Shown here: one piece after another, positions 4,330 through 38,984 of the stretch
How positions within the stretch are numbered: the first letter of the stretch is position 1
How the letters are laid out: every line of letters begins with the position of its first letter
Assembly (NCBI GenBank): GCA_016185945.1
Contig: JACPMR010000015.1
Location: 7,256-71,255 of the forward strand
DNA length: 64,000 nucleotides
From: Candidatus Woesearchaeota archaeon
GTDB lineage: Archaea; Nanobdellota; Nanobdellia; Woesearchaeales; GW2011-AR4
Direction: 5' to 3'
Notes under the pieces: generated by a model
Database searches by the model: none
Seen by the model: only the letters and a program-made list of their open reading frames with translations
What the model was told of the DNA's origin: nothing
Made by a program: the position numbers and the translations under genes

Positions 4330-5021
4330 AAGTTCCAAAATCACATCCAAGATATATTTCATTAAAAACAAGGGATTTGATAGCTGATGGAGTAGAAAAA
4401 GGAATAACATCAATTCATGGACTGATTGCGCATGGAAGAGGTGAGGCATTTGACTATTTGCTTGGTGAGAAAACAACTGATGCTGCAAAAAAATCAATTG
4501 AAGCGGCTGCAGCAATGTTATTATTGGCAAAAAATCCGGTTATTTCTGTAAATGGAAATGCTGCAGTATTAGTTCCAAAAGAGTTGGTTAAATTATCAAA
4601 TTTATTGAATGCTCCGCTTGAAGTCAATATTTTTCATCAATCGAAGCAAAGAGAAATAAAAATAAAAAAACATCTTGAAAAACATGGAGCAAGAAATGTT
4701 TTATTGCCCGACAAAAAATATAAAATAAAGTTTCTTGAGTCAAACAGAAAATATGTAAACCCCCATGGGATTTTAAAGGCAGATGTTGTCTTTGTTCCTT
4801 TGGAAGACGGCGACAGGGCAGAGGCATTAATCAAGAATGGAAAAAAAGTTGTAACTATTGATTTAAATCCATTGTCTAGGACAGCGCAGAAAGCAACAAT
4901 AACTATTGTGGATAATATAACAAGAGCGATGCCTTTGTTAATAAAAAAGATACAACAATATAAAAAATATGATAATAAAAAAAGTTTAAAGCAATCATCA
5001 AAAATTATAAAATCGTTCTAA
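4326..5021 (+). CDS. candidate archaeal phosphopantothenate synthetase (DUF137/COG1701-like)
   Basis: 231 aa; N-terminal segment GLIAHGRGEAFDYLLGE; operonic with coaBC and the GHMP kinase; assignment rests on context plus recalled family features. Confidence 0.5.
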   Translation: MKVPKSHPRYISLKTRDLIADGVEKGITSIHGLIAHGRGEAFDYLLGEKTTDAAKKSIEAAAAMLLLAKNPVISVNGNAAVLVPKELVKLSNLLNAPLEVNIFHQSKQREIKIKKHLEKHGARNVLLPDKKYKIKFLESNRKYVNPHGILKADVVFVPLEDGDRAEALIKNGKKVVTIDLNPLSRTAQKATITIVDNITRAMPLLIKKIQQYKKYDNKKSLKQSSKIIKSF

Positions 5022-5075
5022 AAACCCAAGAATAGCAATATTTAAATACCTATTTCTTAAAGAATAAACGCGATT

Positions 5076-7148
5076 ATGGTAAAGCGCATGGACATTCTGG
5101 AATGGGTTTTTAGGGAAAGGCCTTGGGAACAGCAATTGTCCGAGGTTGAGGCGCTAAGAAGCTCTATTAAGGCACAATTGATATTATTTGATGATTTGTG
5201 GAGAGCTCATCAAACAAAGTTATCAGCAATAAAAGCAATAGCCGAAGGATATCTTCCTTATTTAAAAGATATTCCAGAATTAAATAACATAATAATAACT
5301 AATTTTAAGAAAATACTAGAAGGGATAAATTTCAAAGTTCTGATTAAAAAAATTTTGTACGAATCTACTGAAAGACTGCATGAGATTGAAGTTTTTGTTT
5401 GGAGATATGGTGGAGCAAGTCTTCCAGCATGGGATCCTACTACTGGGGAAAAGATTGTACCAAAAGTGGAAATAAAACCCTATAATATAGAAAGTGCAAA
5501 AAGAGCAATATGGAGCATTGTGAAAGACAAACAAGAGTTGGAAGATTTCATTAGAGATGCCTCAAAACAATTGCTGCCGGAGTTAGAAGCATTAAAGAAA
5601 CTTTACAATGAACAACTAGAACCATTCTTGAGGGAACAGTCAGACAAGGCTGGAAGCGGCATATGGACTGGTTTTAATACAGATGAAAATGAAAGATATT
5701 GGAAGCAAGAAGGTGAAATTATTTTACAAATGAAGAGGATTCTAAGTGACATAATAAATAAGACAATTGTAATGGCTAGACTATGGAGCAGAGTAGAGAT
5801 TGAGGAGCTAAAAACAAAAGAAGAATTCATAAAAGAAGTAGGACAAAAAGTAAGAAAAAAAGTGGGGGTTATGCTGATATCTCAAATATCAGGAACACCT
5901 TATCAAATGAGTGAATTTGAGAATTTCCTAAAAAGCATGGGCTACATAACCTATAATGTAAGGCTTCCTGGACATGCAACTTCTTTAGAGGAATTGTTTA
6001 ATACGCCAGTTGACGAAATTGAAAGATTTTTAATAAGCCAATTCAATTTTTTCTATCAAGCTATGAAAAAAATAAACAATGGTGACGGCAGATTTTATAT
6101 TGCAGGAAATTCCCTTGGCGCTATGATGCCATTACATATAATGGCAAAAAGCTGGAAAGTCGCCATAAAAACAGAAAACTCAGCTAAAAAATTTAATGAA
6201 AAAATTGGTGAAACTGTGACAATACACCCTTATCAAGATATGGTTAAAGGAATTATTTCAATCTCGGCAGCAACAAGCCTTGCCGCAGGTCCACTTCCAT
6301 TTGGAGTTGGGCCACCTATGATTAATCTTGGTACAAAGGTAGCAAAAAATCCTATTGCCTCAAAAATATTAACGCCTATAATGGCTCTTTTAGCAGGCAG
6401 AAAAATACGCAAAGAAGGCATAGTAGATTATGCGGGTTCTGTACATATAAAGATTGAGGGGATTAAGAAAAGAATAGACCCTGACCTCGAACCTGATAGA
6501 TTTTATGAAGCGGTAAGAAATGAGATTAAGCCACTAATTCAAGGAATTTACAGAAAAAAGATAGCTAAAATCAATAATCTAAAACTCAAGAACATAATAA
6601 ATAAAAAGATTGAGGAGATTAAACAAGAAATCAACCCAAATCTTTATCCTGATAGATTTTATGAAACAGCAAAGAAAGAGATTGAATTAATTAGAGAGAC
6701 TTTTAGAGGAATGTCAACTGAGATTAGCGAGATGGAACTTAACAGTATGGTTGAACAGGTAATAGATAATGTAAAAAAGGGACTACATGCATTTGCTGGC
6801 GAAAGTTTGATGGGTGTAAGGCCACTACAAGAAAAAATGCGTGGACAGTCTGTTAAAACATTACTAGGCGGTGTATCCAAATTAATATCACAATTAAGGG
6901 AAGATGTAAAACATATTTATATACCGATTCTTATACTTCAGGGACTTCATGACAGTATAACCCACCCTTCAAGCGCAGATTATATTTATAATAATGTTAA
7001 AACAAATCCAAAATTCAAGAAAAAAAGAATGTTAGAAGGTTCAGGACACACGCCACAGTTAGACTTCGATAAAGATATAGTGTTCGAAGAATCTGTCAAA
7101 TTTATTGAGATGGTAGAAGAAAGTGAAAAAGTGCCTGTATATGGCTAA
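5076..7148 (+). CDS. large alpha/beta-hydrolase-fold protein with N-terminal domain of unknown function
   Basis: 690 aa; nucleophile elbow GNSLG, and C-terminal LQGLHDS and GSGHTP consistent with an Asp/His triad; internal duplicated segment (IDPDLEPDRFYEAVRNEIK / INPNLYPDRFYETAKKEIE) inside a long cap insertion. Confidence 0.5.
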   Translation: MVKRMDILEWVFRERPWEQQLSEVEALRSSIKAQLILFDDLWRAHQTKLSAIKAIAEGYLPYLKDIPELNNIIITNFKKILEGINFKVLIKKILYESTERLHEIEVFVWRYGGASLPAWDPTTGEKIVPKVEIKPYNIESAKRAIWSIVKDKQELEDFIRDASKQLLPELEALKKLYNEQLEPFLREQSDKAGSGIWTGFNTDENERYWKQEGEIILQMKRILSDIINKTIVMARLWSRVEIEELKTKEEFIKEVGQKVRKKVGVMLISQISGTPYQMSEFENFLKSMGYITYNVRLPGHATSLEELFNTPVDEIERFLISQFNFFYQAMKKINNGDGRFYIAGNSLGAMMPLHIMAKSWKVAIKTENSAKKFNEKIGETVTIHPYQDMVKGIISISAATSLAAGPLPFGVGPPMINLGTKVAKNPIASKILTPIMALLAGRKIRKEGIVDYAGSVHIKIEGIKKRIDPDLEPDRFYEAVRNEIKPLIQGIYRKKIAKINNLKLKNIINKKIEEIKQEINPNLYPDRFYETAKKEIELIRETFRGMSTEISEMELNSMVEQVIDNVKKGLHAFAGESLMGVRPLQEKMRGQSVKTLLGGVSKLISQLREDVKHIYIPILILQGLHDSITHPSSADYIYNNVKTNPKFKKKRMLEGSGHTPQLDFDKDIVFEESVKFIEMVEESEKVPVYG

Positions 7149-8792: not shown

Positions 8793-9086
8793 TCAACAAA
8801 ACCTGCCAAACTCTTCCTTCATGTCATAAAATATCTCGCAGAATTTTCTTGTTGCAGCCTTAAGCTCCTTTTGCCCCTTTTTAGTAAGCTTGTATTTCTT
8901 CTCCTTGCCGCTGTCCTTTACCTCTTGTATAAAGCCGCTCTCGCTTAATGCCTTAAGCACGGGATATATTGTTCCGGGGCTCGGCTTTGCGCCTTTTCTC
9001 TTTTTCATTTCTTTCCTGATGTCTTCCCCAGACATGTTTTTTTTGGATATAAGCCTCAATACTATAAAGCTCAGGAACCCCCTCAT
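8793..9086 (-). CDS. PadR-family transcriptional regulator
   Basis: Winged-helix PadR signature RGFLSFIVLRLISKK...GTIYPVLKALSESGFI; about 97 aa. Confidence 0.75.
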   Translation of the reverse strand: MRGFLSFIVLRLISKKNMSGEDIRKEMKKRKGAKPSPGTIYPVLKALSESGFIQEVKDSGKEKKYKLTKKGQKELKAATRKFCEIFYDMKEEFGRFC

Positions 9087-9148
9087 GTCACAGCATTCTC
9101 TCATGCAACTTAATATTTTTAGGGTGTTTATAAATTTTTACCCATTAT

Positions 9149-10435: not shown

Positions 10436-10530
10436 TAGATGCCCCTGCGGGGACTTTCATAAGAAAAGATTTTTCTTTTCTTACATTGAACCCCGACCTC
10501 AAGGTCCGCAACCTCACGTTCTGGTCCGTT
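10436..10530. other. GC-rich structured element of unknown identity downstream of the rhodanese gene
   Basis: GCCCCTGCGGGG hairpin, GAAAAGATTTTTCTTTTC hairpin, and a terminal CTACAGGGGC resembling the CTACAGGGAAGCC 3' module of the intergenic repeat family; tRNA-like segments but no complete cloverleaf found by hand. Confidence 0.3.
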
Positions 10531-10782
10531 ATACTACAGGGGCAATAAGAAAGTTGAGAAAAGCGATTTATAAAGTTTCTTAATAACAGAATTCAATTTA
10601 TAAAATAAATCAAAATTTAAAAAATTCAAACAAACTGGCTCCCTAGGAAATTTTATAAGTAGCATAGGGAACCCGCTGTGATTCATGCCTTTAAAGTAGA
10701 TATTCAGAGACAAATTTCCGCTTTTGAACAAATTGTCCATATAGAAAATAATTTTTACTACTAATATATAGTGACAAACCGA

Positions 10783-10818
10783 AAGATTTATAAAGGGTGG
10801 AAAATATAGATTTTCCAT
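10783..10818 (+). promoter_or_regulatory. archaeal TATA-box promoter for the GGDEF gene (likely leaderless transcript)
   Basis: TTTATAAAGG at 10787-10796, about 23-32 bp upstream of the ATG at 10819; no Shine-Dalgarno motif between. Confidence 0.4.
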
Positions 10819-11475
10819 ATGGACGGAGATAAATTAGAACCAAGAGTAAGACAACTTGAAGAATTGATAAGGACTGTAGAAGGGGTTAGTGAACAAAAAA
10901 AACAAGAAATGTTGGAATTAGTTCACCAAGTATCACTGCACGACCCACTTACAGAACTTCCTAATAGAACTCTGTTTGCTAGAAGATTTAACGAAGAGGC
11001 ACATAGAGCTGCAAGACATGGGCAGCCTTTAGCAGTTTTAGCACTTGATTTAGACTATTTAAAAAGATATAATGATATGTATGGACATCTACAAGGAGAT
11101 AGGGCGTTAATACACGTTGCATATTTGTTGACTCGACAGAGAAGACCTGAAGACATAGTAGCAAGAATTGGCGGAGAAGAATTTGATGTAGTGCTTCCTG
11201 AAACTGACGAAAGAGGTGCTGTCACAGTTGCTGAAGATATTTTAAGAAGATTTAGATCACATCCAATTAACGATTATGTTGGGCTTCCAGAAAGAGCAGA
11301 AGCAACATATTTCAAAAAAAGAACATTCCGCGATCTTACTATGAGCATTGGCGTAGCTACCTGCACGCCAAAAACTAATTCAGATGCTCTCCTATTACCA
11401 GCCGATGCTGATAAAGCGTTATACTCAGCAAAAGAAGCTGGAAGAGATAGGTATGTTGTTTATCGAAGTAGATAG
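10819..11475 (+). CDS. GGDEF-domain diguanylate cyclase (bacterial-type, intact I-site and A-site)
   Basis: Near-consensus GGDEF domain: DPLTELPNRTLF, LDLDYLKRYNDMYGH, I-site RPED, active site RIGGEEF, C-terminal SIGVA...ALYSAKEAGRDRYVVY; short N-terminal coiled coil; locally elevated GC. Confidence 0.85.
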   Translation: MDGDKLEPRVRQLEELIRTVEGVSEQKKQEMLELVHQVSLHDPLTELPNRTLFARRFNEEAHRAARHGQPLAVLALDLDYLKRYNDMYGHLQGDRALIHVAYLLTRQRRPEDIVARIGGEEFDVVLPETDERGAVTVAEDILRRFRSHPINDYVGLPERAEATYFKKRTFRDLTMSIGVATCTPKTNSDALLLPADADKALYSAKEAGRDRYVVYRSR

Positions 11476-11480
11476 TTCTC

Positions 11481-13037
11481 TCATTCCCCCCAATCCCTCA
11501 AGCTAATCTGCCCTTTTCTTTTGTTTTCAGGCACTTCTAATTGCTCCTGTCCAAGTTGTTTTTTGACGCTTAAGGCAACTTTCTCTCCCAGTAATTGAGA
11601 TAACGTTGCTAAGTCTGTGTTTTTGACATCCTTTATGTCCCTTATTCTGTTCCTGAACAAGATTCTTGCTCTTACCCTTCCTATGTTTTCCAATCTTATC
11701 AAAGGCAGCAATTCTTCTTTTATTCCATACTTCAATCTTAACCTTAACTTGATAATTTCCTTTATCAGTGATTGGTAATGCAATATCTTGCATATTTCCT
11801 CTGTTGCATAAAGAAGCCAGTCTGCAATGTCAAGCTTTGTTCTTAGTTCGCCTGGCCTTATGTTAAATTCCTCCAATAAGAATTCCTCATCCTGTTCACT
11901 AATCCACTGGTAAAACATCATGGCCGTCTTTACGGAGTTTAAAAACTCTTCATATTCCGGCTCGTACATTGACGGCTCGTTCTCAAGCAGGAAATCCGAG
12001 AATTCAAGCAAGGATTCCTGTATTCTGTCATATTCCCTAATGCCGACCCTGAGCAACGGCCTTATTTCAAGGGTATGGGAGAGCATCTGCAGGAAAGAAA
12101 AATCATTGATTTTTTTGTCAGACGCATTTCTCAGGCAGGTTATTATGAAATTTGCTGTCAACGGATCGATGTAAAGCTCGGCAACCCTCTTGCCGATTAA
12201 AGTAGCTTTGAATTTTTCATCTTCAAGCTCGTTTGCACTCGCAAAATCATCTGCAGACGACATTATTAACTCCCATTCCTCGAGCAAATCAATAACTTTG
12301 TTAAGTGTAGAATGCAATTTCCTTAAGTCCTTGAACTGATAAGCATAGAAAGTTTTGTCAAAAAAATCAAAAAGCTGCTTTTTTGTTGTTGTAAAGTTTG
12401 CTGCTATAAGAGATAAAACATAAGTTCTAAGCACTGGCTCGACTGCAAGCTTTGAGTAAATCTCTTCAGGAGTCCCGTCAATGTATTTTTCCTCTATCTT
12501 TTCCTTTTCCGAGTTTGTTGCTGCAATTGCAATTGCTTGCCCTTCTTTGTCATAGTTTGGACGTCCTGCTCTTCCTGACATCTGCATATAATCCAAAACA
12601 GGAATCCAAGTCAAGCCATGCAATGTGTATCTTCTCAAGTCTTTTAAAATAGATCTGTACGCCGGTAAATCTACACCGTACGCAAGAGTTGGCGTGGAAC
12701 ATATTATTTTTATTACTCCACTCCTGAAATTTTCCTCTATCAATCTTCTTTGCTTTTCTACCAAGCCAGCGTGATGGAATGCAATGCCCTTTTTCAGGCA
12801 TAAAGCAAGTCGTTCGCATTGCTTTGTAGGGCGGGAAAGGGTGTTCAAAGCACCCTCTGAAAGCAAGCTTAATTTTTCATCATCAGTTTTTATTTTCTTT
12901 GAAATTTCCTCTGCTGTCTTTTCTGCTGATTTTTTCGTGTTTGCAAAAACCAGTGCCTGCTTTCCAAGCTTTATAGTGTCTAAAGCGATATTTAGAACAG
13001 CACTATCAAATTCATCATCAATTTTGATTGATGCCAT
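11481..13037 (-). CDS. Hel308/Ski2-like helicase lacking the N-terminal RecA1 (Walker A/B) domain
   Basis: Helicase C-terminal motifs LVFANTKKSAEKTA, GIAFHHAGL, STPTLAYGVDLPA, QMSGRAGRP, followed by winged-helix/ratchet/HhH-like regions; ORF begins directly in RecA2; a repeat element lies immediately upstream. Confidence 0.6.
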   Translation of the reverse strand: MASIKIDDEFDSAVLNIALDTIKLGKQALVFANTKKSAEKTAEEISKKIKTDDEKLSLLSEGALNTLSRPTKQCERLALCLKKGIAFHHAGLVEKQRRLIEENFRSGVIKIICSTPTLAYGVDLPAYRSILKDLRRYTLHGLTWIPVLDYMQMSGRAGRPNYDKEGQAIAIAATNSEKEKIEEKYIDGTPEEIYSKLAVEPVLRTYVLSLIAANFTTTKKQLFDFFDKTFYAYQFKDLRKLHSTLNKVIDLLEEWELIMSSADDFASANELEDEKFKATLIGKRVAELYIDPLTANFIITCLRNASDKKINDFSFLQMLSHTLEIRPLLRVGIREYDRIQESLLEFSDFLLENEPSMYEPEYEEFLNSVKTAMMFYQWISEQDEEFLLEEFNIRPGELRTKLDIADWLLYATEEICKILHYQSLIKEIIKLRLRLKYGIKEELLPLIRLENIGRVRARILFRNRIRDIKDVKNTDLATLSQLLGEKVALSVKKQLGQEQLEVPENKRKGQISLRDWGE

Positions 13038-13119
13038 AAGGTAAAAGAAGAAATGATTGTTTATAAAGATTGTTGAATTAAATTTAAAATTCATTGACAA
13101 AAATAATAAAATAAATTAA

Positions 13120-13341
13120 CAATCAGCGACCCATGCACTTCCATGAAGTAAAATGGGTGCCCCGCATACTTCTTCCTGCACTATATTGCAGGCGATAAAG
13201 TGCAACTGCGTGGCATGTGAGCGAGTTCGCTGTTGCGTGCGAGAACGCTCGCACGCTCGCGTTCAGGTCGAGCTCACTCGCATGTCACTGGCTGTGGTTC
13301 CCTCATCGCAAAGGCGGCTACAGGGAAGCCCCGTGATTGAA
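13120..13341. repeat. GC-rich intergenic repeat element, copy B (long form with extra GC hairpins)
   Basis: CAATCAGCGACCCATG ... AAAATGGGTGCCCCGCATACTTC ... hairpins GCGTGCGAG-AACG-CTCGCACGC and GAGCTCACTCGC ... GGCTGTGGTTCCCTCATCGCAAAGGCGGCTACAGGGAAGCCCCGTGATTGAA; TIR CAATCA.. / ..TGATTG. Confidence 0.7.
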
Positions 13342-13406
13342 ATAAATAATTTAATCATTGTTTTTAGGAAGCCTCTTTGATTGAATTATAAATTTATTAA
13401 TGCTTT

Positions 13407-15296
13407 TTACACCACATTCACATTCATTATCTGCTCAACTTTTTCAATTCCGTCGCTTACTGTAACTTTAATAACTTTTGTGCCTTTGCTTGTGAATGTT
13501 CTTTGATGGCTGGAAGTTGCCTTATACTTTTCCAAAAGCCCAAAGTTCCATGTGTAAGTCAGTTCATCTCCATCGTCGTCAACTGCTTTCACAAATAAAA
13601 GAACAGGCTGATTTGCTCTTGCTATTACGCTTTTTGTCGAATCAATTATTTTAGGCGCCCTGTTTTTATCCGTTACCTCAACTTTTGCAATTTGCCTTGT
13701 CTCTGCCTTGCCATCGCTTGCAACAAAAATCAAGTCAAGCTTCTTTGTTTCCTTTTTATTTGCTATATCAAAACTTGGTGTCCACAAGAATGCATTTCCT
13801 TTAATTGAATAGTCCTCTGGAGCATTATCAATCCTGAATGTCATTTCATCCCCGTCTGGGTCGTGGGCATTTAGAAGTATTGCAATATTGTCGCCTTCCA
13901 TTGCTTTTACACTCTCAATCTTGCCGAACAATGGCGCCCTGTTTGTTTGCTGTATGTTAATCTGCACAAACTTTGATGTTTCAAGCAAGCCGTCGCTTGC
14001 AGTTACTTTTACATAATAAATTCCTGCATCATCATAGCCTGAATTGAAAGTGTCAGAATCCATAAAGCCGGAGTATCTTAAAGTTATCTTATTTTCATCC
14101 AAGTCATATGCTTTTGGCACAATTTTTAATGTTTCGCCCTCATTTATTGCTATGGGCTCCATGTCTTCAATTAGGGGGGCTCTATTTACATCCTTGACTG
14201 TGATTATTATATTTTGAATAATTTTCTTGTCTTTTGAAGATGCAATAAACTGAACATAGAAGCTCTTGCTCAAAACCCTGAACTTGTCCATAACTTTATC
14301 TACGAAGCCCTCTTTCCTTACTGTGTCAAAATTTGTTTTCCATGCGAATACATTGCCTTCAAGCATTGCGCCTTCTGGCAGATTGTTTGCAGAATAAGTT
14401 ATTTCATCTCCGTCAGGCTCATTTGCACTTAGTGTTATTTTTACTTCCTCATTCTCATTTATTACTTTGTTCTCAACTTTCTCAAAAAAAGGCGCTCTGT
14501 CAACATCATTTACGATCACCTTAACAATTTTGTCGCCGCTGAAGCCTTTGCCTTCTGCATGAACTTTGAATTCATAAGCGCCTGCATCCTGATAAGCAGT
14601 CTTCCACTCATTCTTGCTTAGCGGCTCTGAAATGGAGTAAGCCAAGCCGTATTTTTCAAAATTGGGTAGCTTTAACTTAACAACCTCATTTTCATTAACA
14701 GCAACATCGCTTATGCCATTTAACAAACCTTCAACATCAACATTCTGTGCATTAACTTGCCATTCCTTGCTTGCTGAACTTATTACATCAGAAACAGAAG
14801 CGGTTATTCTATGAGAGCCAGCGTCGTTATAGGTTGTGTCATAAGTGAATTCCTGCCCATCCGCGACTTTTTTGTCGTCCAAAAACCACTCGTAGCTTAA
14901 AGCATCTTTGTTTAAATCACTTGCTGAAACTTTAAATTCAATAGAATCGGTTTCCTTAATGCTTAAAGTATCCTGCCTTGGGCTGAACGAATCTATCTTT
15001 GGGCTTTCTTCTTTCTTGTTGACAACAATCAGCACTTCCTGCGATGTCTCTGTAACGCCGTCAGAAACAGTTATTGTGGTTTTATGCTCGCCTGCATCTC
15101 CGTAACCAGTTTGCCATTCGCCGTTTTCATTGAGAGGAGGAGCGTAAGTTATCGTAAGCTTGTCCGCATCAGGGTCTGCTGCATTCGGCACTAGGCTTAT
15201 CTTTTCAGTTTCCTGGATTACAAAAGTAGTGGCTGAATACACAAGATGGGGGAATATTAAAAAGATGATTAGCAATAATACAATCCTTTTATTCAT
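13407..15296 (-). CDS. secreted surface protein with tandem cadherin-like/Ig-like Ca-binding repeats
   Basis: 629 aa; N-terminal signal peptide; repeated ~95-aa units with NRAPLF/NRAPKI starts and DPDGDE/DDDGDELTYTW motifs. Confidence 0.6.
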   Translation of the reverse strand: MNKRIVLLLIIFLIFPHLVYSATTFVIQETEKISLVPNAADPDADKLTITYAPPLNENGEWQTGYGDAGEHKTTITVSDGVTETSQEVLIVVNKKEESPKIDSFSPRQDTLSIKETDSIEFKVSASDLNKDALSYEWFLDDKKVADGQEFTYDTTYNDAGSHRITASVSDVISSASKEWQVNAQNVDVEGLLNGISDVAVNENEVVKLKLPNFEKYGLAYSISEPLSKNEWKTAYQDAGAYEFKVHAEGKGFSGDKIVKVIVNDVDRAPFFEKVENKVINENEEVKITLSANEPDGDEITYSANNLPEGAMLEGNVFAWKTNFDTVRKEGFVDKVMDKFRVLSKSFYVQFIASSKDKKIIQNIIITVKDVNRAPLIEDMEPIAINEGETLKIVPKAYDLDENKITLRYSGFMDSDTFNSGYDDAGIYYVKVTASDGLLETSKFVQINIQQTNRAPLFGKIESVKAMEGDNIAILLNAHDPDGDEMTFRIDNAPEDYSIKGNAFLWTPSFDIANKKETKKLDLIFVASDGKAETRQIAKVEVTDKNRAPKIIDSTKSVIARANQPVLLFVKAVDDDGDELTYTWNFGLLEKYKATSSHQRTFTSKGTKVIKVTVSDGIEKVEQIMNVNVV

Positions 15297-18235: not shown

Positions 18236-18604
18236 TTATCTTACAAACTCGACGTTTTCGAAGCCTTTGAATGCATAATCTCCTGTCACGAATTTTAAGT
18301 TTAATTTTAATGCAGCCACATATCCAATGCAATCAGTAAAGCTAAATCTTTTTTTATTATTTGCAAGTTTGAACTTATTTGCGTCTTTGATTATATCATC
18401 ATCTGTGCTCATGATTAATGGCAGTATAAGATTGTATATTCTTTCTGCCTCTTCATTTCCAAAATTCTTCAAGTAATAGAAATGAATTTCCATAATGTTA
18501 AATATTGTTGTTCCGGCTTCTATCGGGCTGATAGAGTAATTACTGTACTTAGGGTTTTGTGTAGCTATTTCTATCAGCGCATAAGTGTCCAGAAAGTATT
18601 GCAT
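18236..18604 (-). CDS. vapC: PIN-domain ribonuclease toxin (VapC-like)
   Basis: MQYFLDTYALIE (first acidic residue), FTDCIGYVAA, TGDYAF: PIN catalytic residues; start taken at the internal Met so that it abuts vapB. Confidence 0.7.
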   Translation of the reverse strand: MQYFLDTYALIEIATQNPKYSNYSISPIEAGTTIFNIMEIHFYYLKNFGNEEAERIYNLILPLIMSTDDDIIKDANKFKLANNKKRFSFTDCIGYVAALKLNLKFVTGDYAFKGFENVEFVR

Positions 18605-18605
18605 T

Positions 18606-18827
18606 TTACCTATTCCATTCCTTCCTAAGCTCGTCTTTTGCCTTCTGCGCATCAATTTTTAGATGCTTGCTTGCGCCCCACAATTTGCTTAAATCAACTT
18701 TCGGGATAATCTCGAAAGTAACTTCCTGGCCGACTTTTAGTTTTCTCTCTTTGACATAATGCGGAGGAACAGTCAAAACAATGCTGTTTCCTGACTTCCT
18801 GACTCTTGTAGTTGGCATATTAATCAC
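18606..18827 (-). CDS. vapB: AbrB/MazE-type antitoxin (VapB-like)
   Basis: 73 aa; SpoVT/AbrB swapped-hairpin signature VRKSGNSIVLTVPPHYVKERKLKVGQEV; directly upstream of and overlapping the PIN gene. Confidence 0.65.
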   Translation of the reverse strand: MINMPTTRVRKSGNSIVLTVPPHYVKERKLKVGQEVTFEIIPKVDLSKLWGASKHLKIDAQKAKDELRKEWNR

Positions 18828-18917
18828 CTATGTAATACATATGTAATACGGAAGTATTTAAAGGTTTTGGGTAGGAATATAGGAAATATTTAAATTATCA
18901 AAACTTATCCTGTATAT

Positions 18918-19703
18918 ATGAAAGAGAAAGCTGTAGAAAAAGTGGAAAATTTCATTGATTTATCCATGCCTATTGTGAAAGCCGCTGTTAACATACCTAC
19001 TTTAGGTTTTGGTGGAGCTGTTATCGAAATATTTCAAACTGACTACCGATTATCAAAAGAAAGGAATATTAAAGAGTTTTTTGAAAGTATAGACAAAAAA
19101 CTAAAGGAAATAGGAATACAAATTGATGAGACAATTAAAGAAAGGCTGAAATCTCCTGAATTCTATCAGATTATCACAAGAATACTAACTAAAATTCAAA
19201 TAGAAAGTAGAAAAGAAATAAGAGAGATTTATTCAAATTTACTTATTCAATTACTTAAGGAAGAACCAAAAATTAATTTTAATCAAAAATTATTTTATTT
19301 AGAAATATTGGGAAATTTAAATGAAGACCATATTAAAATATTAAGTGTTTTTTATAAGGAAGGGGAAGTAAAAAGCAGATTTAGACTAGATTCACTTTAT
19401 GAAAAGACTCGATGTTATGAAACCAAGAAATTAAAAAAAGGTGATCCAGATTTTGATTTTATGGGATTTAAAGAACGGAAAACTCTAAATTATGCGAAAT
19501 CTTCTTATTTTAAAGGTTTAGTAAGTGACTTAGTTGGTAAACAAATAATTGATATTTTTCAAGAAATTGAATCAACCCCAGAATACAAAGAAGAGGGAGA
19601 TGTTAGAAAAGAGTTAAAATCTATTGAATCAGAAATAAAGGAAGAATATGAAGGAACAGAATTGGGATTAAGTTTCTATAAATTTGTTCTGACTTATAAA
19701 TGA
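18918..19703 (+). CDS. hypothetical protein, first gene of a two-gene module (possible Abi-like partner)
   Basis: 261 aa, no recognisable catalytic motif; hydrophobic Gly-rich N-terminal segment IPTLGFGGAVIEIF; co-oriented, 35 bp upstream of a PD-(D/E)xK nuclease-like gene. Confidence 0.4.
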   Translation: MKEKAVEKVENFIDLSMPIVKAAVNIPTLGFGGAVIEIFQTDYRLSKERNIKEFFESIDKKLKEIGIQIDETIKERLKSPEFYQIITRILTKIQIESRKEIREIYSNLLIQLLKEEPKINFNQKLFYLEILGNLNEDHIKILSVFYKEGEVKSRFRLDSLYEKTRCYETKKLKKGDPDFDFMGFKERKTLNYAKSSYFKGLVSDLVGKQIIDIFQEIESTPEYKEEGDVRKELKSIESEIKEEYEGTELGLSFYKFVLTYK

Positions 19704-19738
19704 AAAATCAAAATTTTTAAAGGAATTCAGATTAATTT

Positions 19739-20635
19739 TTGAACATGGATAATTCAATCAAAGAAAAGATAAAAAATCACATTTTAGAGCATGGATTTTT
19801 ATTAGAAGAAGAAACTAAAACTTTCTTAGAGTTACAAGGATGGGAATGTGAAAGAAATGCTCATTTCGTCGATCAAGATGTTCCAACCGAATCAAGAGAG
19901 ATTGATATAATTGCCCGTAATTTTAGTTGGTATAAAAATTTTGACCCAAAAAGGATTCTAGTTAGATTTGATTTAATAATTGAATGTAAAAACTATAAAG
20001 ATCCAATAGTATTTTTTTCTACTAATAAAACTAGAGAGGACAAAGAAATTTTCTTTTCAAAAGAATTGATCAATTTTTTTACTACCCATGATACTGTTTA
20101 CGTGCCTATTCCAGAATCACAAAATAAAAAAGTTATATCTGTTGCTGAATTCTTGAAAATTGATAAATATCATCATTTTTTTAATAGTAATTTAAAAGCC
20201 ACAAACCTTAATTTATCAAGAGTTAAGTCTGATTATTCATTCTCAAATATAAAATTATATGAAGCTACTATATTACCATTAATCAAAGCAAATGACTGGT
20301 ACAGAGCAGACCGTAAGAATAGTGTTAAACTTTTTGCTGGAAATAGTATCCACGTACCATTTTCATTTATTATTCCAATTTTAGTACTTGGTAATGATTT
20401 TTTTGAAGCATATTTTGAAAATGGAGAGCTTAAATTAAAAAAATCAGATTATATTCAATTTATTTCTGATTATAGATCCAAAAATATAAATGGACGTTTC
20501 CAAATTGATATAGTGAATAAAAGTTATTTTGAAAATTATCTAAAAGAAAAAGTAGATGTGACTATTAATAAGGTTAGTGAAGTTATATTAAATAACTTCC
20601 AAGATATAGATAGATTTAGTCATATTTCAAATTAA
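19739..20635 (+). CDS. PD-(D/E)xK (restriction-endonuclease-fold) nuclease-like protein with C-terminal domain of unknown function
   Basis: N-terminal segment EIDIIARNF ... RFDLIIECKNY supplies a D ... D-x4-E-C-K motif typical of Mrr/NERD-like nucleases; about 200 aa of unassigned C-terminus. Confidence 0.5.
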   Translation: MNMDNSIKEKIKNHILEHGFLLEEETKTFLELQGWECERNAHFVDQDVPTESREIDIIARNFSWYKNFDPKRILVRFDLIIECKNYKDPIVFFSTNKTREDKEIFFSKELINFFTTHDTVYVPIPESQNKKVISVAEFLKIDKYHHFFNSNLKATNLNLSRVKSDYSFSNIKLYEATILPLIKANDWYRADRKNSVKLFAGNSIHVPFSFIIPILVLGNDFFEAYFENGELKLKKSDYIQFISDYRSKNINGRFQIDIVNKSYFENYLKEKVDVTINKVSEVILNNFQDIDRFSHISN

Positions 20636-20643
20636 AAATATAA

Positions 20644-21039
20644 TTATTTAATAATTGAAGTATTAATAAGATTTTGTGTAGTTCCTAAATATCCTCCAAA
20701 CCATAAAGCTGCTATGATTAAGATAGAAAAGGAACCGTATGCTAAAAAACTAATTTGATAGAACTCAACTGGAAGACTTTCTTTTGATAGATAAGCTACT
20801 AAGGCAATTATACCTATAATTGTACCAATATTAAGATAAATTTGAAACCAGTTAGGTAAATTATTGAAATAATGATAAAAGATCTGCCATAATAATAAAG
20901 AATTTAAAAAAATGCCAACTCTTCCTATATAAGATTGTCTAAATTCAACAATACCTGCAACTACTAATCCTATCATAGCAATATATGATAGGGATTTTGG
21001 TAGTATTATTAATGTCTCAATCATTAAAGGTGTTGTCAT
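20644..21039 (-). CDS. small integral membrane protein (4 TM), unknown function
   Basis: 131 aa, four hydrophobic helices. Confidence 0.4.
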   Translation of the reverse strand: MTTPLMIETLIILPKSLSYIAMIGLVVAGIVEFRQSYIGRVGIFLNSLLLWQIFYHYFNNLPNWFQIYLNIGTIIGIIALVAYLSKESLPVEFYQISFLAYGSFSILIIAALWFGGYLGTTQNLINTSIIK

Positions 21040-21082
21040 GGTTATAAATTAATAAAAATAATGTTTAAATTTATTGACTAAG

Positions 21083-21400
21083 TTAAGAGTTTATTACATC
21101 TTGTGCAATTTTCTTATAAATTAAATGTAATAAATTATATTTATTATTTTTTTTATTTATCTGGAAATATTTTGATTTATCATCTTCCCTTGTTTGTACA
21201 ATTAAATTTTTATCTAATAAATCTTTAATTGCATTTCTAACTGCTGTTCTTGATAATCCAGTACCTTTATGAATTTGAGTTATGGTAAAATCAAAATTCT
21301 CTCCTAAAAAAAAGAAATCAAGAACTTTAATGGTATTATTAGTACCAAAAACATTTTCAAAAAGGGGTTTACCTAAAAGTAATTTTTGTTTCATCGCCAA
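21083..21400 (-). CDS. winged-helix transcriptional regulator
   Basis: 105 aa; HTH segment ITQIHKGTGLSRTAVRNAIKDLLDKNLIV. Confidence 0.5.
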   Translation of the reverse strand: MAMKQKLLLGKPLFENVFGTNNTIKVLDFFFLGENFDFTITQIHKGTGLSRTAVRNAIKDLLDKNLIVQTREDDKSKYFQINKKNNKYNLLHLIYKKIAQDVINS

Positions 21401-21516
21401 TTCACCTCTTATTTGAAAATGACTACTGAAGTATTATAATAAATCATAAAGTTTAAATATCAGTACACCCTAACTCCTTATAGGTGTATGTTAGGGTGAC
21501 TGACAAAAAACTTTTC

Positions 21517-21756
21517 TTATCTTTTTCTTGGAACAAAAGTTAACTTACCATTTTTCAATGGAATAATTTCCTTTCTTTCAATCAAGCCATCAATTGATTT
21601 ATCCGAATTTTTGGTATTTATACCAATATTTTTTAGATAAACAACAATCTCTGCTCGATGAAAGCTGGTTATTCCAGCGTTCTTTAATTCGATAAGATAG
21701 TTTTGTACTATGTTATCTATGGGCCTCATCGTAATCACCTTCCCCCACCGACCCAA
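21517..21756 (-). CDS. small hypothetical protein
   Basis: 79 aa ORF followed by a 9-bp perfect inverted repeat CACCCTAAC ... GTTAGGGTG at 21457-21495. Confidence 0.3.
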   Translation of the reverse strand: MGRWGKVITMRPIDNIVQNYLIELKNAGITSFHRAEIVVYLKNIGINTKNSDKSIDGLIERKEIIPLKNGKLTFVPRKR

Positions 21757-21950
21757 GCAGGTTTAAACATGATTTTTCAGGAGGAAAAATCAATGGCAAA
21801 TACAACAATTTCTTTTTGGAAGGTGATTAGTCGTTGCCGACTAACAAGATGTGTTATTCTTAGAGTTTATAAATGTTTCCTTTTTAGAACATTATCGTCT
21901 TAAAAAAGACATAAACTAAACCTATAGATTTGGAATAAACCCTTTCTAAA

Positions 21951-22040
21951 CCTCCACTTCCCTCTCCACCACAATCTTCCCTGTCACACTCCTCACTATT
22001 TGATTGATTATCTCCAAATCATAGAATTGTTTTAGTGAAA
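21951..22040. repeat. degenerate direct duplicate of the 3' end of the radical SAM gene (att-like)
   Basis: CCACTTCC ... ACAATCTTCCCTGTCACACTCCTCA matches CCACTTCC ... ACAACCTTCCCAGTCACGCTCCTCA at 22331-22420 (the real gene end), about 22/25 identity in the core and weaker on the flanks; the copies bracket the Bro-N fragment. Confidence 0.55.
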
Positions 22041-22124
22041 GCATTCATAGCCTCAAAAAGCATTCAAATACCACTGGACATTCCCAGACAAAGTATTTAA
22101 AGCAATACTTGTACTCATGCCAAC

Positions 22125-22352
22125 ATGGAGCCTGAAAACGCCCTTGTAGTATTCCAAGGCAAGAAAATAAGGAGAACTTGGTTTAATGATGAGTGGTGGT
22201 TTGTAGCCGTTGATATTGTAGAGGCATTGACTGACTCAAAAGACCCTAATGGCTATTTAAAGGATATGCGAAGGAGGGATGAAGGCTTTGCTCAAGGATG
22301 GGGGCAAATTGCCACCCCCCTTTCTATTGATACACCACTTCCACTTTCTTAA
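22125..22352 (+). pseudogene. Bro-N (phage antirepressor N-terminal) domain fragment
   Basis: 75 aa: ALVVFQGKKIRRTWFNDEWWFVAVDIVEALTDSKDP fits the Bro-N pattern (F-F ... IR ... WF-A-DVA--LG); truncated, GC-richer than surroundings, 3' end overlaps the radical SAM gene. Confidence 0.5.
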
Positions 22353-23814: not shown

Positions 23815-23895
23815 AAGAAAATAGTATTCTTAGCAACTTAAAAATCTTTTTATGTGTTATAAGTTTATACGCAATTAAAATATAAATAAAAAATT

Positions 23896-24044
23896 CAATC
23901 ACGATGGCGACCCATGCGCTTCCTAAGCTAAAATGGGTGCCCCGCATACTTCTTTGGCACTTTATCATCAGCAATCAAGTGCAAGCATCAGAGGCTGTGG
24001 TTCCCTTATCACGATGGTATAGACAGGGAAGCCCAGTGATTGAA
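23896..24044. repeat. GC-rich intergenic repeat element, copy C
   Basis: CAATCACGATGGCGACCCATG ... AAAATGGGTGCCCCGCATACTTC ... CAATCAAGTGCAAGCATCAGAGGCTGTGGTTCCCTTATCAC ... CAGGGAAGCCCAGTGATTGAA; clear TIR CAATCACG / CAGTGATTG. Confidence 0.7.
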
Positions 24045-24169
24045 AATTTTTAAAACTTAGTTTTTTATGTACGAATTGATTATATTCTTTAAAATATATA
24101 TCAAACTTGCATTTTTAGCAAAAAGCTTAAATAGACATATTTTGAAATATTCTCTTTACACACAAGGAG

Positions 24170-24535
24170 GTGGTGTATATCGCAGATGTACAGAAAACAT
24201 ATGCAATGGTTATAGGTGCAGTTCTTGTGCTTGTAGGGTTAATCGGATTCTTCAATGCGCCTATATTTGGAGTGTTTGGAGTCAACACAGCGCAGAACTT
24301 GTTGCATCTTGTGGGAGGAGCCTTAATGCTCTGGTTTGGATACAAAGGAAGCGGCAAGACAGCCAACACATGGCTTGGCTACATCTCAGCTGTTGTAGCT
24401 GTTCTCGGCTTTGTGCCAGGAGCAAAGGATTTGCTTGCAAGCATTTTTGCCATCAACATGGCAATAACATGGCTGCACGCAGCAATAGCTGTTGTTTCAT
24501 TGGGAGTTGCTTTTGGAGTTAAAGGTGCAGCATAA
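24170..24535 (+). CDS. small membrane protein (DUF4383-like, 4 TM)
   Basis: 121 aa, GC-richer codon usage; GTG start 7 nt after a strong AAGGAGG Shine-Dalgarno; preferred over the overlapping ORF 24067..24522, whose cysteine-rich translation looks spurious. Confidence 0.5.
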   Translation: MVYIADVQKTYAMVIGAVLVLVGLIGFFNAPIFGVFGVNTAQNLLHLVGGALMLWFGYKGSGKTANTWLGYISAVVAVLGFVPGAKDLLASIFAINMAITWLHAAIAVVSLGVAFGVKGAA

Positions 24536-24555
24536 GCTGCATTCTTTTTTCTTTT

Positions 24556-24750
24556 ATGAAGAATAAAATTTTTGATGTGCTAGGAACCATATTGCTATTT
24601 ATTGGATTTTTTCTTGCCTTTTTGCCGCATGCAGTACATACCACTATCGGCTTAGGTGGTGAAACTTCACATTTCAGGCATATCTTAATAGGAATGGCAC
24701 TTGTGATAATTTCACTTGTTATTTTAATAAAAAACAGACACCAAAAGTAA
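24556..24750 (+). CDS. small 2-TM membrane protein
   Basis: 64 aa, two hydrophobic helices, follows the previous gene by 20 bp. Confidence 0.35.
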   Translation: MKNKIFDVLGTILLFIGFFLAFLPHAVHTTIGLGGETSHFRHILIGMALVIISLVILIKNRHQK

Positions 24751-24914
24751 AGAATAAAAAAATATATTAAGGTCACTTAATACCCTATGCTTGATTTGAA
24801 TGGGCACAAATGTATCAAAAAGAGTAATGCTTATGCATCTATACTCACGGACAAAAATAATTATACAATAGTTGTCCGTTCGTAATATGTCGGAAATTGC
24901 AAAATAAATTATAA

Positions 24915-25000
24915 ATTGTTGCGATTTCCGCTGAGTTGAGCGAGCGAGATATGAACGCGAGCTTGCGAGCGTTCTCGCAATCGCCATGCAAGCATCGCCT
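24915..25000. repeat. GC-hairpin module of the repeat family (copy D, partial)
   Basis: GCTGAGTTGAGCGAGCGAG ... TTGCGAG-CGTT-CTCGCAA ... CCATGCAAGCATCGCC; shares the GAGCGAG hairpin module with copies B and K. Confidence 0.5.
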
Positions 25001-25075
25001 TAGAAAATGCGCTTAAAAAATTGGACAAAAATATTAAAACACTAAACTTGGACTCTATCAACAAGAAACGGAATA

Positions 25076-25837
25076 GTGAACATGGCTAAAATAATACTTA
25101 ATGCTGCGTTTATACTTTTACTTTTTATTTTAATGATAATTTTAGACTCAATTTACTTCTATCTTAACTGTTATTACGGATTTTTCTCACAGGCCGGCAT
25201 TGTTAGAAGTGGTTCCCGCAACAAAAGGAACGTAGCTATCACATTCGATGACGGCCCTTCAAAGTATACGGATAAAATCCTCGATATTCTCAAAAACAGA
25301 AAGGTGAAAGCAACCTTTTTTTTGGTTGGGGAACAAGTAGGGCAATATCCGCATATTGCTAGAAGAATAGTCGAAGAGGGACATGACATAGGCAATCATT
25401 CTTTTGCCCATTCAAGGCTTTCCCTGAGGACAAAAAAGACCGTCATGGAACAAATAGAAAAAGCTGAGAGAATAATAAAAAAAATTACAGGCAAAAAAGC
25501 ATTATATTTTAGACCGCCAAATGGAAACTACGATCAAAATCTTAGAGAGATTCTTGTAAGAAAAGGCTACAAAATGGTTCTCTGGACAATATCATCTTAT
25601 GACTGGATGAATCCCGGAGTCGGTATCATCATTTCAAAGGCTACAAAACGCGCGAAAAATGGAGACATTATCCTTTTTCACGATTCGGGAGGATTAATAA
25701 AATCTCATATGATGGGCAGAGAGCAGACAATCAATGCCCTCCCAAAAGTGATTGATGAGCTAAAGAAAAAAAGATTAATGCCAGTAAAAATAAGCAGGTT
25801 ATTAAAAGATAACTACAACTCGCCGCTCGGGGGCTAA
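25076..25837 (+). CDS. polysaccharide deacetylase (NodB-homology) family protein
   Basis: N-terminal TM then ITFDDGPSKYT, ATFFLVGEQV, HDIGNHSFAH: NodB motifs 1-3. Confidence 0.8.
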   Translation: MNMAKIILNAAFILLLFILMIILDSIYFYLNCYYGFFSQAGIVRSGSRNKRNVAITFDDGPSKYTDKILDILKNRKVKATFFLVGEQVGQYPHIARRIVEEGHDIGNHSFAHSRLSLRTKKTVMEQIEKAERIIKKITGKKALYFRPPNGNYDQNLREILVRKGYKMVLWTISSYDWMNPGVGIIISKATKRAKNGDIILFHDSGGLIKSHMMGREQTINALPKVIDELKKKRLMPVKISRLLKDNYNSPLGG

Positions 25838-35034: not shown

Positions 35035-35172
35035 AGCTTCCTTTAGAAGTAAGCATGATGAAGGAGACCTGCTTTTGCAGAAGGCACTTTCTATCGCAGC
35101 AATCAAGTGCAGGAAGAAGAGGCTGTGGCTCCCTTACCACAAAAGCAGCTACAGGGAAGCCAGATTTTTGAA
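35035..35172. repeat. GC-rich intergenic repeat element, copy E
   Basis: CAATCACGAGAGCTTCC ... GAAGTAAGCATGATGAA ... CAATCAAGTGCAGGAAGAAGAGGCTGTGGCTCCCTTACCACAAAAGCAGCTACAGGGAAGCC; right end degraded (CAGATTTTTGAA). Confidence 0.65.
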
Positions 35173-35198: not shown

Positions 35199-35465
35199 TT
35201 AATACCAACTGCCTCGCCAAGTTGAGTGCCCCCATTGAATGAGCAAGTCGACTCCCAAGCGCTCTACTTGTAATGGCACGTCACAGGCGCCAAAGCACGA
35301 GCCCATCCATATTACTACATTGGCATTTGTATTTTTCTCTATTGCCTGCTGTATCTCTTTTGCCCTTGGCTTCAAGCCGTCCGGCAGCTGAACGCAGACC
35401 AGCTTTGAGTTTTCCTTGGTGATTCTTTCTATGACTTTGTGAAGTTCAAGGTCGTATGGGTCCAT
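35199..35465 (-). pseudogene. Dph2 (diphthamide synthesis 2-(3-amino-3-carboxypropyl)histidine synthase) N-terminal fragment
   Basis: 88 aa: LVCVQLPDGLKPRAKEIQQAIE ... VVIWMGSCFGACDVPLQVERLGVDLLIQWGHS matches the Dph2 N-terminus (P. horikoshii VLIQSPEGL ... YGACD ... LGHS), then diverges (TWRGSWY-stop) exactly where repeat copy E begins; the remaining ~240 aa of Dph2 are absent. Confidence 0.6.
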
Positions 35466-36334: not shown

Positions 36335-36458
36335 TTGTAAGTAGGCATGATAAAAGTAAACCGTTGTGAGTTAAGTGCTATAGTGCTAAGCGTTCAAGCA
36401 CTGCAGCAGTATGCGGGGCACCCATATTACATGGTTGTGAACATGGCGCTGATTGATT
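36335..36458. repeat. GC-rich intergenic repeat element, copy F (rearranged; core in inverted orientation)
   Basis: GTAAGTAGGCATGATAAAAG (forward, as in copy E) followed by GCAGCAGTATGCGGGGCACCCATATTAC (reverse complement of the GGGTGCCCCGCATAC core) and the terminal GCGCTGATTGATTG (reverse complement of CAATCAATCAGCGC). Confidence 0.6.
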
Positions 36459-38907: not shown

Positions 38908-38984
38908 TGGTTTTGGGAAAAAATAGGTATATATAAAGGTTTTTGTGAATGTTGTTTTCAGTCCTTTAAAATAGTAAAAATTAT

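Follow-up and report, generated by a model that had tools for sequence, protein, structure and literature searches.

A stand-alone GGDEF gene at a conserved chromosomal slot in Woesearchaeota: a predicted archaeal diguanylate cyclase

Are the diguanylate cyclase genes found in archaeal metagenomes genuine archaeal genes, or are they bacterial contaminants? For one case of this question, a locus in a Woesearchaeota genome gives an answer that can be checked. The locus lies in a stretch of 64,000 nucleotides (nt; hereafter the window) of contig JACPMR010000015.1 from Candidatus Woesearchaeota archaeon (assembly GCA_016185945.1, positions 7,256 to 71,255 of the forward strand), and it contains a gene for a 218-residue protein with a GGDEF domain. 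We conclude that this is a genuine chromosomal gene of Woesearchaeota (DPANN, class Nanoarchaeia) and not contamination, because its flanks, its promoter, its codon use and its synteny across many independent assemblies are archaeal. Its product is probably a stand-alone, sensor-less, product-inhibited diguanylate cyclase under conserved transcriptional control, belonging to a lineage-specific archaeal family that occupies one chromosomal slot.

Such genes have been viewed with caution, and surveys have warned about GGDEF and HD-GYP domains in archaeal metagenome-assembled genomes (MAGs). Among complete archaeal genomes, Galperin and colleagues counted a single GGDEF, in Methanocella arvoryzae, and they regarded MAG hits as possible contamination (PMC5847659; bioRxiv 10.1101/2021.11.05.467447), and Römling noted that archaeal GGDEF proteins still need confirmation in archaeal contigs (PMC10086821). 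BLAST searches by Braun et al. returned more than 300 archaeal hits, many of which fall in DPANN and Asgard (PMC8646023), and a study of groundwater tallied diguanylate cyclase genes in MAGs of ultra-small prokaryotes, with archaea not separated (PMC9938205). That DPANN bins contain GGDEF genes is already known, and NCBI holds an identical protein under the name 'GGDEF domain-containing protein [Candidatus Woesearchaeota archaeon]', whose longest recorded carrier contig is 311 kb; what is new here is validation at the level of the locus. We found no paper describing this GGDEF family, locus or promoter. Archaeal GGDEF proteins reported earlier include Methanocella arvoryzae RCIX2274, with the architecture REC-PAS-PocR-GGDEF-HD-GYP, and a Ca. 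Micrarchaeum protein with a REC domain and an inactive GGDEF domain. Those reports offer no validation at the level of the locus; here synteny, promoter and codon use provide it, and the protein stands alone, has intact catalytic residues and belongs to a vertically maintained family.

The original prediction, made from the DNA letters, described an almost consensus GGDEF domain with intact active and inhibitory sites (A- and I-sites), and profile searches bear this out. Coding begins at position 10819; the start given originally, 10783, takes in the promoter. The Pfam GGDEF profile PF00990 aligns from position 2 to 161 of its 161 positions over residues 40-211 of the protein (139.9 bits, E 8.3e-41, cut-off 23.8), and NCBIfam TIGR00254 matches with 145.4 bits (cut-off 37.4). 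The sequence reads DPLTELPNR at residues 42-50, and the I-site RPED is followed by the five residues IVARI and then by the A-site GGEEF. Across 67 sequences (the window gene and 66 homologs), N49, D77, D79, N85, G89, G93, D94, R116, G118, G119, E121, S176, G178, K205 and G208 are invariant, and R209 is conserved in at least 90%. Among eight syntenic archaeal GGDEF genes the invariant set is D42, L44, T45, D77, K82, N85, H90, G93, D94, R109, R116, G119, E121, F122 and K205. In the eight-member alignment of the short subfamily defined below (A4), the whole of GGEEF is invariant, together with R109, D112, D77, D79, K82, N85, G93 and D94. The residue set for GTP binding and catalysis (D77, N85, D94, K205 and R209) is complete and has the spacing of PleD, whose D327, N335, D344, K442 and R446 we take to be the counterparts, with K332 presumably equivalent to K82; we likewise assume the roles of these residues in contacting metal, guanine and phosphate from the structural literature on PleD and WspR. 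Joint conservation of GGEEF and RxxD in the subfamily is a signature of purifying selection for both catalysis and product inhibition.

Structural comparison places the protein among the same enzymes. An AlphaFold2 model of the 218-residue monomer has a predicted local distance difference test score (pLDDT) of 88.7 and a predicted template modelling score of 0.81, and its top 50 Foldseek matches in the PDB are diguanylate cyclases throughout, led by WspR, GCN4-WspR, SiaD, GcbC, PleD and DgcB (E 1e-15 to 2e-18). WspR (Pseudomonas PA3702; PDB 3bre, 3i5a and 3i5c) is the best structural and near-best sequence match, at 34-37% identity. The alignment with it reaches into the helix before the domain, and both proteins have GGEEF with RxxD five residues upstream. 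Unlike WspR, the archaeal protein has no REC domain, and so no control by phosphorylation, and it carries a 25-residue insertion after the helix that follows GGEEF; its host and promoter are archaeal. A fusion of the GCN4 coiled coil to WspR shows that a coiled coil and a GGDEF domain suffice for an active, product-inhibited cyclase. The same minimal architecture of a helical stalk and a GGDEF domain is found in SiaD (P. aeruginosa PA0169; PDB 7e6g; Foldseek E 1e-17) and in DgcB of Caulobacter (6ttr; 1e-15). The SiaD model NF038266 matches residues 7-212 with 136.8 bits, far under its equivalog cut-off of 290, so the gene is not an ortholog of siaD, nor is it an NCBIfam equivalog of any other named cyclase; unlike SiaD, it has no SiaC-like activator or SiaA/B partner nearby.

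The 39 residues before the GGDEF domain contain no REC (PF00072) or sensor domain in a Pfam scan. In the AlphaFold2 model the second of two helices in this region continues into the GGDEF domain, as does the stalk of WspR or SiaD, and PDB sequence alignments begin within the region, at residue 9 (GCN4-WspR, 3i5c), 16 (WspR, 3i5a) and 7 (SiaD, 7e6g). A hydrophobic heptad register can be read at residues 6-10-13-17-20-(24)-(27)-31-34-38, with a break at G22. A coiled-coil stalk is plausible on this model. Of the originally predicted coiled coil of about 40 residues without a sensor, the short helical N-terminus and the missing sensor hold. The insertion at residues ~148-173 is gapped against PDB sequences, has no counterpart in bacterial GGDEF structures and is modelled with low confidence (pLDDT 51-56). 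It is kept in seven other short GGDEF proteins (P0238, P0262, P0268, P0276, P0280, P0292 and P0337), with G155 and Y164 invariant.

That the gene sits in an archaeal chromosome is evident from its surroundings. A Pfam scan of the 65 open reading frames (ORFs) of the window found archaeal marker genes on both sides and over the full 64 kb, in line with the archaeal context originally proposed: GatD/GatE, the A-type ATPase operon, CDC48, CDP-archaeol synthase, phosphopantothenate synthetase with pantoate kinase, RNase P Rpr2 and Hel308 domain 4. Six independent single-run Logan assemblies match positions 10515-11976 at 100% identity, running from the 5' exon of a tRNA-Arg gene through the GGDEF gene into up to 500 bp of an archaeal helicase gene. 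Sequencing runs SRR12113384-SRR12113431 contain the gene. Five of the six stop at 10515-10534, within the tRNA 5' exon. Together with the survey warnings cited above, these breaks could be taken to indicate a bacterial contaminant or a chimeric mis-join in the assembly. We consider such an error barely credible: breaks inside a conserved tRNA gene are what an assembly-graph fork would produce, and they are consistent with a sequence common to co-occurring strains that have or lack the GGDEF gene; all six runs cross the junctions without a mismatch; the same gene order recurs in independent assemblies from other studies; and the promoter is archaeal and the codon use host-like. The tetranucleotide distance of 1.5-kb windows over the gene ranks 55-86 of 126 and is no outlier, which likewise speaks for a contig that is not chimeric.

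Base composition does not mark the gene as foreign, since its GC content is ordinary, its GC content at third codon positions (GC3) is low, its codons are host-like and its tetranucleotides are unremarkable. In this we depart from the original prediction, which had described a locally GC-richer gene in gene-free DNA and read this as consistent with horizontal acquisition. Genes of the window average 0.366 in GC content, and this one has 0.387 (z 0.5); its GC3, at 0.21, is the fifth lowest of 55 genes (host mean 0.35). The GC content of the first two codon positions is the highest among the 55, as expected for a domain rich in Arg, Ala, Gly, Asp and Glu. Arginine is encoded by AGA or AGG in 22 of 25 cases, compared with 87% in the remaining genes, and the leave-one-out log-odds score of synonymous codons is the most host-biased of all 55; since this score favours AT-ending codons, it denotes the AT-rich extreme of host bias and not high expression. 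Nor is the flanking DNA gene-free: the helicase gene ends 5 bp downstream, and the 275-bp AT-rich spacer upstream (GC 0.27) is a divergent promoter region common to the GGDEF and tRNA-Arg genes.

The same arrangement recurs in related genomes. We compared 29 GTDB assemblies of Woesearchaeota/Nanoarchaeia (L008-L036) with an orthologous helicase at 58-83% identity. Their loci have conserved flanks, with PKD-type surface proteins, the helicase, a variable stretch, a rhodanese or nitroreductase, PadR and an HAD hydrolase, and the tRNA-Arg 5' exon occupies the same slot in 16 of the related loci. Searches by tblastn and hidden Markov models found a convergent GGDEF gene 4-18 bp past the helicase stop in L013, L014, L021, L023, L024, L027 and L030 (Pfam GGDEF E 1e-30 to 6e-44), and L017 has a degenerate copy with AGDEF (4428-5165). 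Of the 25 relatives whose sequence extends at least 900 nt downstream, 8 have a GGDEF gene in the slot. P0276 has the same helicase/PKD context and the same promoter, in L037 and L038, and L039 carries two tandem short GGDEF paralogs adjoining its tRNA-Arg gene (459-1547). In all, at least nine other Woesearchaeota assemblies have a GGDEF gene between the helicase and tRNA-Arg, so that the gene is not the isolated oddity that the original prediction implied.

The proteins encoded in the slot have diverged widely, sharing 21-45% identity in pairwise comparisons, and differ mainly at their N-termini: short helices in the window protein, L023 and L024, a PAS domain in L027 (7557-8468), an unassigned domain of ~80 residues in L014, L021 and L030, and an Arg-rich insertion in L013 and L017. 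In loci with the tRNA exon and no detected GGDEF gene, tRNA-Arg begins 52-390 bp past the helicase, and tblastn found no GGDEF remnants at E < 0.1 in the 1.3 kb downstream of the helicase. Since the tRNA gene directly follows the helicase when no GGDEF gene is detected, the difference between the two kinds of locus is a clean single-gene indel.

The promoter is more conserved than the protein. The TATA box TTTATAAA, originally placed about 25 bp upstream of the ATG, lies at -32 to -25 from it, preceded by a purine-rich run, CGAAAGA, that resembles a transcription factor B recognition element (BRE). This spacing is typical of the host: a TTTAWAW box begins at -28 to -35 in about 14 further genes of the window, and in 12 of these within -28 to -33. 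No Shine-Dalgarno sequence precedes the GGDEF start codon, and a leaderless archaeal transcript is likely. All nine syntenic GGDEF genes have the same TATA box at -29 to -32, with the spacing in L027 counted to its second ATG. The box is part of a conserved block of ~45 bp, in which a palindrome with the consensus TTACTAC-N6-TATAGTAAC is followed by AAAATAGAAAG and then by TTTATAAA. In pairwise comparisons of nine genomes, the block averages 79% identity and the palindrome 84%, compared with 38% for the spacer between the TATA box and the ATG, and the block has this ~79% identity although the encoded proteins share 21-45%. The palindrome is also present 61 bp 5' of the GGDEF start codon in L037, in L038 and at the second paralog of L039. 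With one exception, a copy in L025, the palindrome was not found elsewhere in the window or in loci without a detected GGDEF gene. The conserved promoter and palindrome argue for common descent of the locus, and also for a conserved mode of transcription that depends on a factor of the archaeal host.

The exceptional copy in L025 (10389-10408) lies 56 bp upstream of an ORF for a 149-residue coiled-coil protein unrelated to GGDEF, which adjoins an ORF resembling a GvpA-type gas-vesicle protein, as judged by eye alone. This copy may hint that the regulator of the palindrome controls other genes too.

These findings bear directly on the idea that the gene is a recent acquisition from a bacterium, a GC-richer foreign gene in an AT-rich spacer and perhaps outside host regulation, which we hold to be very improbable. 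GGDEF domains are overwhelmingly bacterial, the nearest matches outside the family are bacterial REC-GGDEF proteins, and the gene adjoins a tRNA gene in a slot that varies between genomes. However, identity to bacterial proteins reaches at best 44-46%, the composition is that of the host by the measures given above, and at least nine other Woesearchaeota have the promoter and palindrome in common with the window, with proteins that have already diverged to 21-45% identity. The gene also lies on the 5' side of the tRNA gene and not on the usual 3' integration side, and the tRNA 5' exon is present in one copy per related locus, with no repeat, the window itself not having been searched. A mobile element integrated at the tRNA gene was rejected as an explanation on this same 5' position and single exon copy and on the lack of an integrase gene adjacent to it in the window.

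An older bacterial ancestry is a different matter. HMMER, run exhaustively against 1.84 billion cluster representatives, returned 331 proteins at E <= 1e-30. The best single-domain matches are the seven proteins named above, which are 213-230 residues long and 41-45% identical to the window protein over nearly their full length; P0238 is identical to the product of the L023 gene. Together with the window gene they make up a short subfamily of eight clusters at 50% identity, which have both N-terminal helices and the private insertion in common. On the subfamily profile (A4) the members score 308-316 bits and everything else at most 195 bits; a word-index search with A4 retrieved 3 of the 8 members, and the remainder needed the exhaustive search. 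The original prediction held that a place in a well-populated archaeal GGDEF clade would make the gene unremarkable. Such a clade has been found in part, and it makes the gene more credible as archaeal biology and not unremarkable, because surveys treat GGDEF and HD-GYP domains in archaeal MAGs as possible contamination. A profile built from all eight slot genes (A2) drew in GGDEF proteins of ~500 residues whose origin is uncertain and of which one bears a planctomycete label, and it did not help to define an archaeal clade.

The runners-up on A4 are bacterial REC-GGDEF response regulators of the PleD/WspR class. Their closest representative, P0002, is 44% identical to the window protein and lies in an operon with a TonB receptor, a hybrid kinase and an HDOD protein; as a group, these nearest proteins outside the family share 41-46% identity over stalk and domain and are likely to represent the ancestral type. 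They carry a REC domain and sit in two-component operons of Gram-negative bacteria, both of which the archaeal protein lacks, and the archaeal family scores more than 110 bits above them on its own profile. Because the nearest outgroups are bacterial REC-GGDEF proteins, an ultimate bacterial origin is likely, and the acquisition is old, at the base of this archaeal clade or earlier. In what we take to be the most likely history, a single old transfer would have brought a bacterial REC-GGDEF gene of the WspR/PleD type into the lineage, after which the REC domain would have been lost and the stalk retained, followed by diversification into paralogs and repeated loss.

How might such a protein work? 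We propose that a leaderless mRNA starts at or beside the ATG, at about 10817-10819, from the BRE/TATA promoter, and that a transcription factor binding the palindrome sets the output of this promoter; as a mere guess, the PadR-family gene nearby (8793-9104) could encode this factor. Because the protein has no sensor domain, its own output would be set mainly by transcription. The helices at residues 6-38 would dimerise the protein in the manner of the WspR, SiaD or DgcB stalk, bringing two GGDEF domains face to face. Each domain would bind one GTP, with N85 and D94 reading the guanine, D77 and E120 holding Mg2+, and K205 and R209 contacting the phosphates, and the pair would condense two GTP to cyclic di-GMP (c-di-GMP) at GGEEF. 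Product bound at R109xxD112 would feed back to inhibit synthesis. All GTP-binding and catalytic residues are present, and c-di-GMP synthesis is predicted on that basis.

Some features of the family could instead suggest that the protein has a role in vivo other than c-di-GMP synthesis, and that it serves as a receptor for c-di-GMP or another nucleotide or makes another product, such as cyclic GMP-AMP (cGAMP) in the case of Hypr enzymes. No partner phosphodiesterase or receptor is visible in the window, the private 25-residue insertion is present, and among the slot genes of relatives L017 has AGDEF, L014 has SGDEF, and L021 and L030 lack RxxD. Yet every GTP-binding and catalytic residue is retained in this gene and in the whole short subfamily, the position that confers guanine specificity is D94, an Asp that is invariant in all alignments and not the Ser of Hypr cGAMP synthases, and the conserved I-site makes most sense with c-di-GMP as the product. 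A function other than c-di-GMP synthesis thus appears unlikely, though it is the most serious of the alternatives that we weighed.

Several points nonetheless weigh against a regulated archaeal cyclase maintained at one slot. According to a 2023 review, c-di-GMP has been detected in no archaeon (PMC10249747), the experimental basis being only mass spectrometry of extracts of H. volcanii and S. acidocaldarius (PMC8646023). The other parts of a c-di-GMP circuit are also missing from view. As originally stated, Pfam finds no EAL, HD-GYP or PilZ domain among the 65 ORFs of the window; Rfam detects no c-di-GMP riboswitch in the window, where its only match is one tRNA; and no known c-di-GMP component occurs among the slot neighbours in related loci, which encode a flavin reductase, a pirin, a glyoxalase, a LUD-domain protein, a KaiC-like ATPase, NurA and a homolog of a lipase maturation factor. 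A phmmer search for EAL domains, with P0098 as query and the window and 29 loci translated in six frames as targets, met only GGDEF parts, a weak test given that the EAL domain of P0098 is truncated. As to structure, the break at residues 22-24 of the model makes a helical hairpin as possible as a continuous coiled coil. As to maintenance, about two-thirds of related genomes lack the gene, which is therefore dispensable, and the relationships among the GGDEF genes are incongruent with a rough helicase tree, a mismatch that calls for either exchange among relatives or ancient paralogy. The latter, with differential loss, is supported by the tandem paralogs in L039; the neighbour-joining tree of the helicase is too star-like for dating gains and losses. 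Finally, we take all slot genes to be monophyletic on the strength of their position and promoter and not of a resolved tree.

The same variability could reflect a role in conflict or interaction, in which the cyclase makes an antiviral nucleotide signal or an episymbiont pushes c-di-GMP-responsive bacterial neighbours toward biofilm formation. The slot is variable, presence is patchy, the proteins diverge very fast and there is a tandem duplication; GC3 of the slot GGDEF gene lies below that of the neighbouring helicase in all nine genomes; conserved PKD/cadherin-like surface proteins are encoded nearby; and diguanylate cyclase genes are reported to be enriched in MAGs of sediment-attached ultra-small prokaryotes (PMC9938205). 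However, PADLOC gives no match for the GGDEF protein, with no cas or effector genes adjacent to it, and no effector gene is linked to it in any locus, nor is there a secretion signal or a gene-linked export system. The idea is speculative throughout, and we rate it as improbable, a little more so than a function without c-di-GMP synthesis.

Our preferred reading, of a product-inhibited cyclase under conserved transcriptional control, can be extended, more tentatively, to the whole lineage. It is possible, though we would put the chance at somewhat less than even, that these Woesearchaeota run a real c-di-GMP system, with regulated product-inhibited cyclases, some of them with PAS domains, long kept at one locus under a dedicated operator, and with receptors other than PilZ, EAL or HD-GYP proteins. 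If this were true, Archaea would for the first time have been shown to use c-di-GMP signalling, and it would imply a receptor of a new kind or a signal aimed at bacterial neighbours. The protein is a small, soluble and easily expressed candidate for archaeal c-di-GMP synthesis and a good test case for the use of c-di-GMP by any archaeon, and the palindrome, together with the presence or absence of the gene among close relatives, offers a starting point toward archaeal c-di-GMP receptors. Should the enzyme prove inactive or the circuit incomplete, the gene would merely be another GGDEF domain in the databases.

Table 1. Coordinates of the GGDEF gene, its parts and the boundaries of its slot, numbered from the first nucleotide of the window.
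Feature	Coordinates	Strand	Remarks
Palindrome TTACTACTAATATATAGTGAC	10755..10775	+	Consensus as in the text; just 5' of the BRE; putative transcription-factor operator
Core promoter (BRE-like run and TATA box)	10780..10794	+	Predicts a leaderless mRNA
TATA box	10787-10794	+	Position relative to ATG as in the text
GGDEF gene	10819..11475	+	ATG start, 218-residue product, stop codon 11473-11475; predicted stand-alone diguanylate cyclase
N-terminal helical extension	10834..10932	+	Residues 6-38; AlphaFold2 helices 6-21 and 25-38
GGDEF catalytic domain	10936..11451	+	Residues 40-211, Pfam envelope
Block D77-L-D79-x-x-K82-x-x-N85-D-x-x-G-H-x-x-G-D94	11047..11100	+	Metal Asp, guanine-binding Asn/Asp
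I-site R109-P-E-D112	11143..11154	+	Five residues before the A-site
A-site G118-G-E-E-F122	11170..11184	+	
Subfamily-specific insertion	11260..11337	+	Residues ~148-173, ~25 residues; motif YVG-x8-Y-x4-G[YF]-x-x-LT
Hel308-like helicase	11481..13037	-	Convergent; stop codon 5 bp from the GGDEF stop; slot boundary
tRNA-Arg(GCG)	10440..10543	-	Transcribed away from the GGDEF gene; intron of ~31 nt in the T-loop; slot boundary

The two genes that bound the slot have peculiarities of their own. The helicase has the Pfam domains Helicase_C and archaeal helicase domain 4, and its match to NCBIfam Hel308-type models starts at model position ~224, leaving out the first ~223 residues, which form the RecA1 domain. 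An ORF of 516-519 residues was seen wherever it was extracted (seven GTDB loci, L037 and L038), and in most of the 29 relatives the match opens at query residue 1-5. By this comparison the gene looks like a conserved split or truncated form and not a local pseudogene; no DEAD-domain half of the helicase is present in the 64-kb window. The tRNA-Arg gene has its own TATA box at 10567-10574. In unmodified form it is missed by ARAGORN and by Rfam at the gathering threshold; its intron is non-canonical and its 5' exon is 58 nt long. Once 29-33 nt are removed, ARAGORN calls tRNA-Arg(gcg), and the fold has a z-score of -4.7. The copy in L039 is apparently intron-less.

Elsewhere in the window, a dispersed, modular, GC-rich intergenic repeat occurs at 1986-2079, 13105-13342, 23885-24055, 24938-24979, 35083-35161, 36405-36455, 42062-42159 and 60621-60648. 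It has a 5' module, GCGACCCATGC...GGGTGCCCCGCATACTTCT, and a 3' module, GGCTGTGGTTCCC...CAGGGAAGCCCxGTGATTGAAA. Its ends are complementary, its predicted folds are strong, and it is essentially absent from related loci. Rfam gave no credible match for the two copies scanned (13050-13420 and 23820-25080), and the repeat may be an element resembling a miniature inverted-repeat transposable element or a structured RNA.

A further segment, 18236-22352, looks like a mobile or defence islet. At its centre is an island of very low GC content (18918-21039, GC 0.25-0.27), which holds an Abi_alpha-like gene and two ORFs that belong to no family; on its flanks are a PIN/MazE-like pair (18236-18827), a winged-helix gene (21083-21400) and a 75-residue N-terminal fragment of Bro-N/PDC-S13 type (22125-22352). 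Two full-length paralogs of an H+-translocating pyrophosphatase lie within 7 kb of each other (36853-39006 and, on the minus strand, 42187-44142), separated by an unassigned ORF of 432 residues and a phosphoglycerate kinase of 522 residues. An LCIB-type beta-carbonic anhydrase gene (45163-45912, minus strand) stands between the genes for the D and B subunits in the A-type ATPase operon. Finally, an 88-residue ORF on the minus strand (35199-35465) matches the first 56 of the 302 positions of the diphthamide synthesis (Dph2) profile and may be a gene fragment or part of a split gene.

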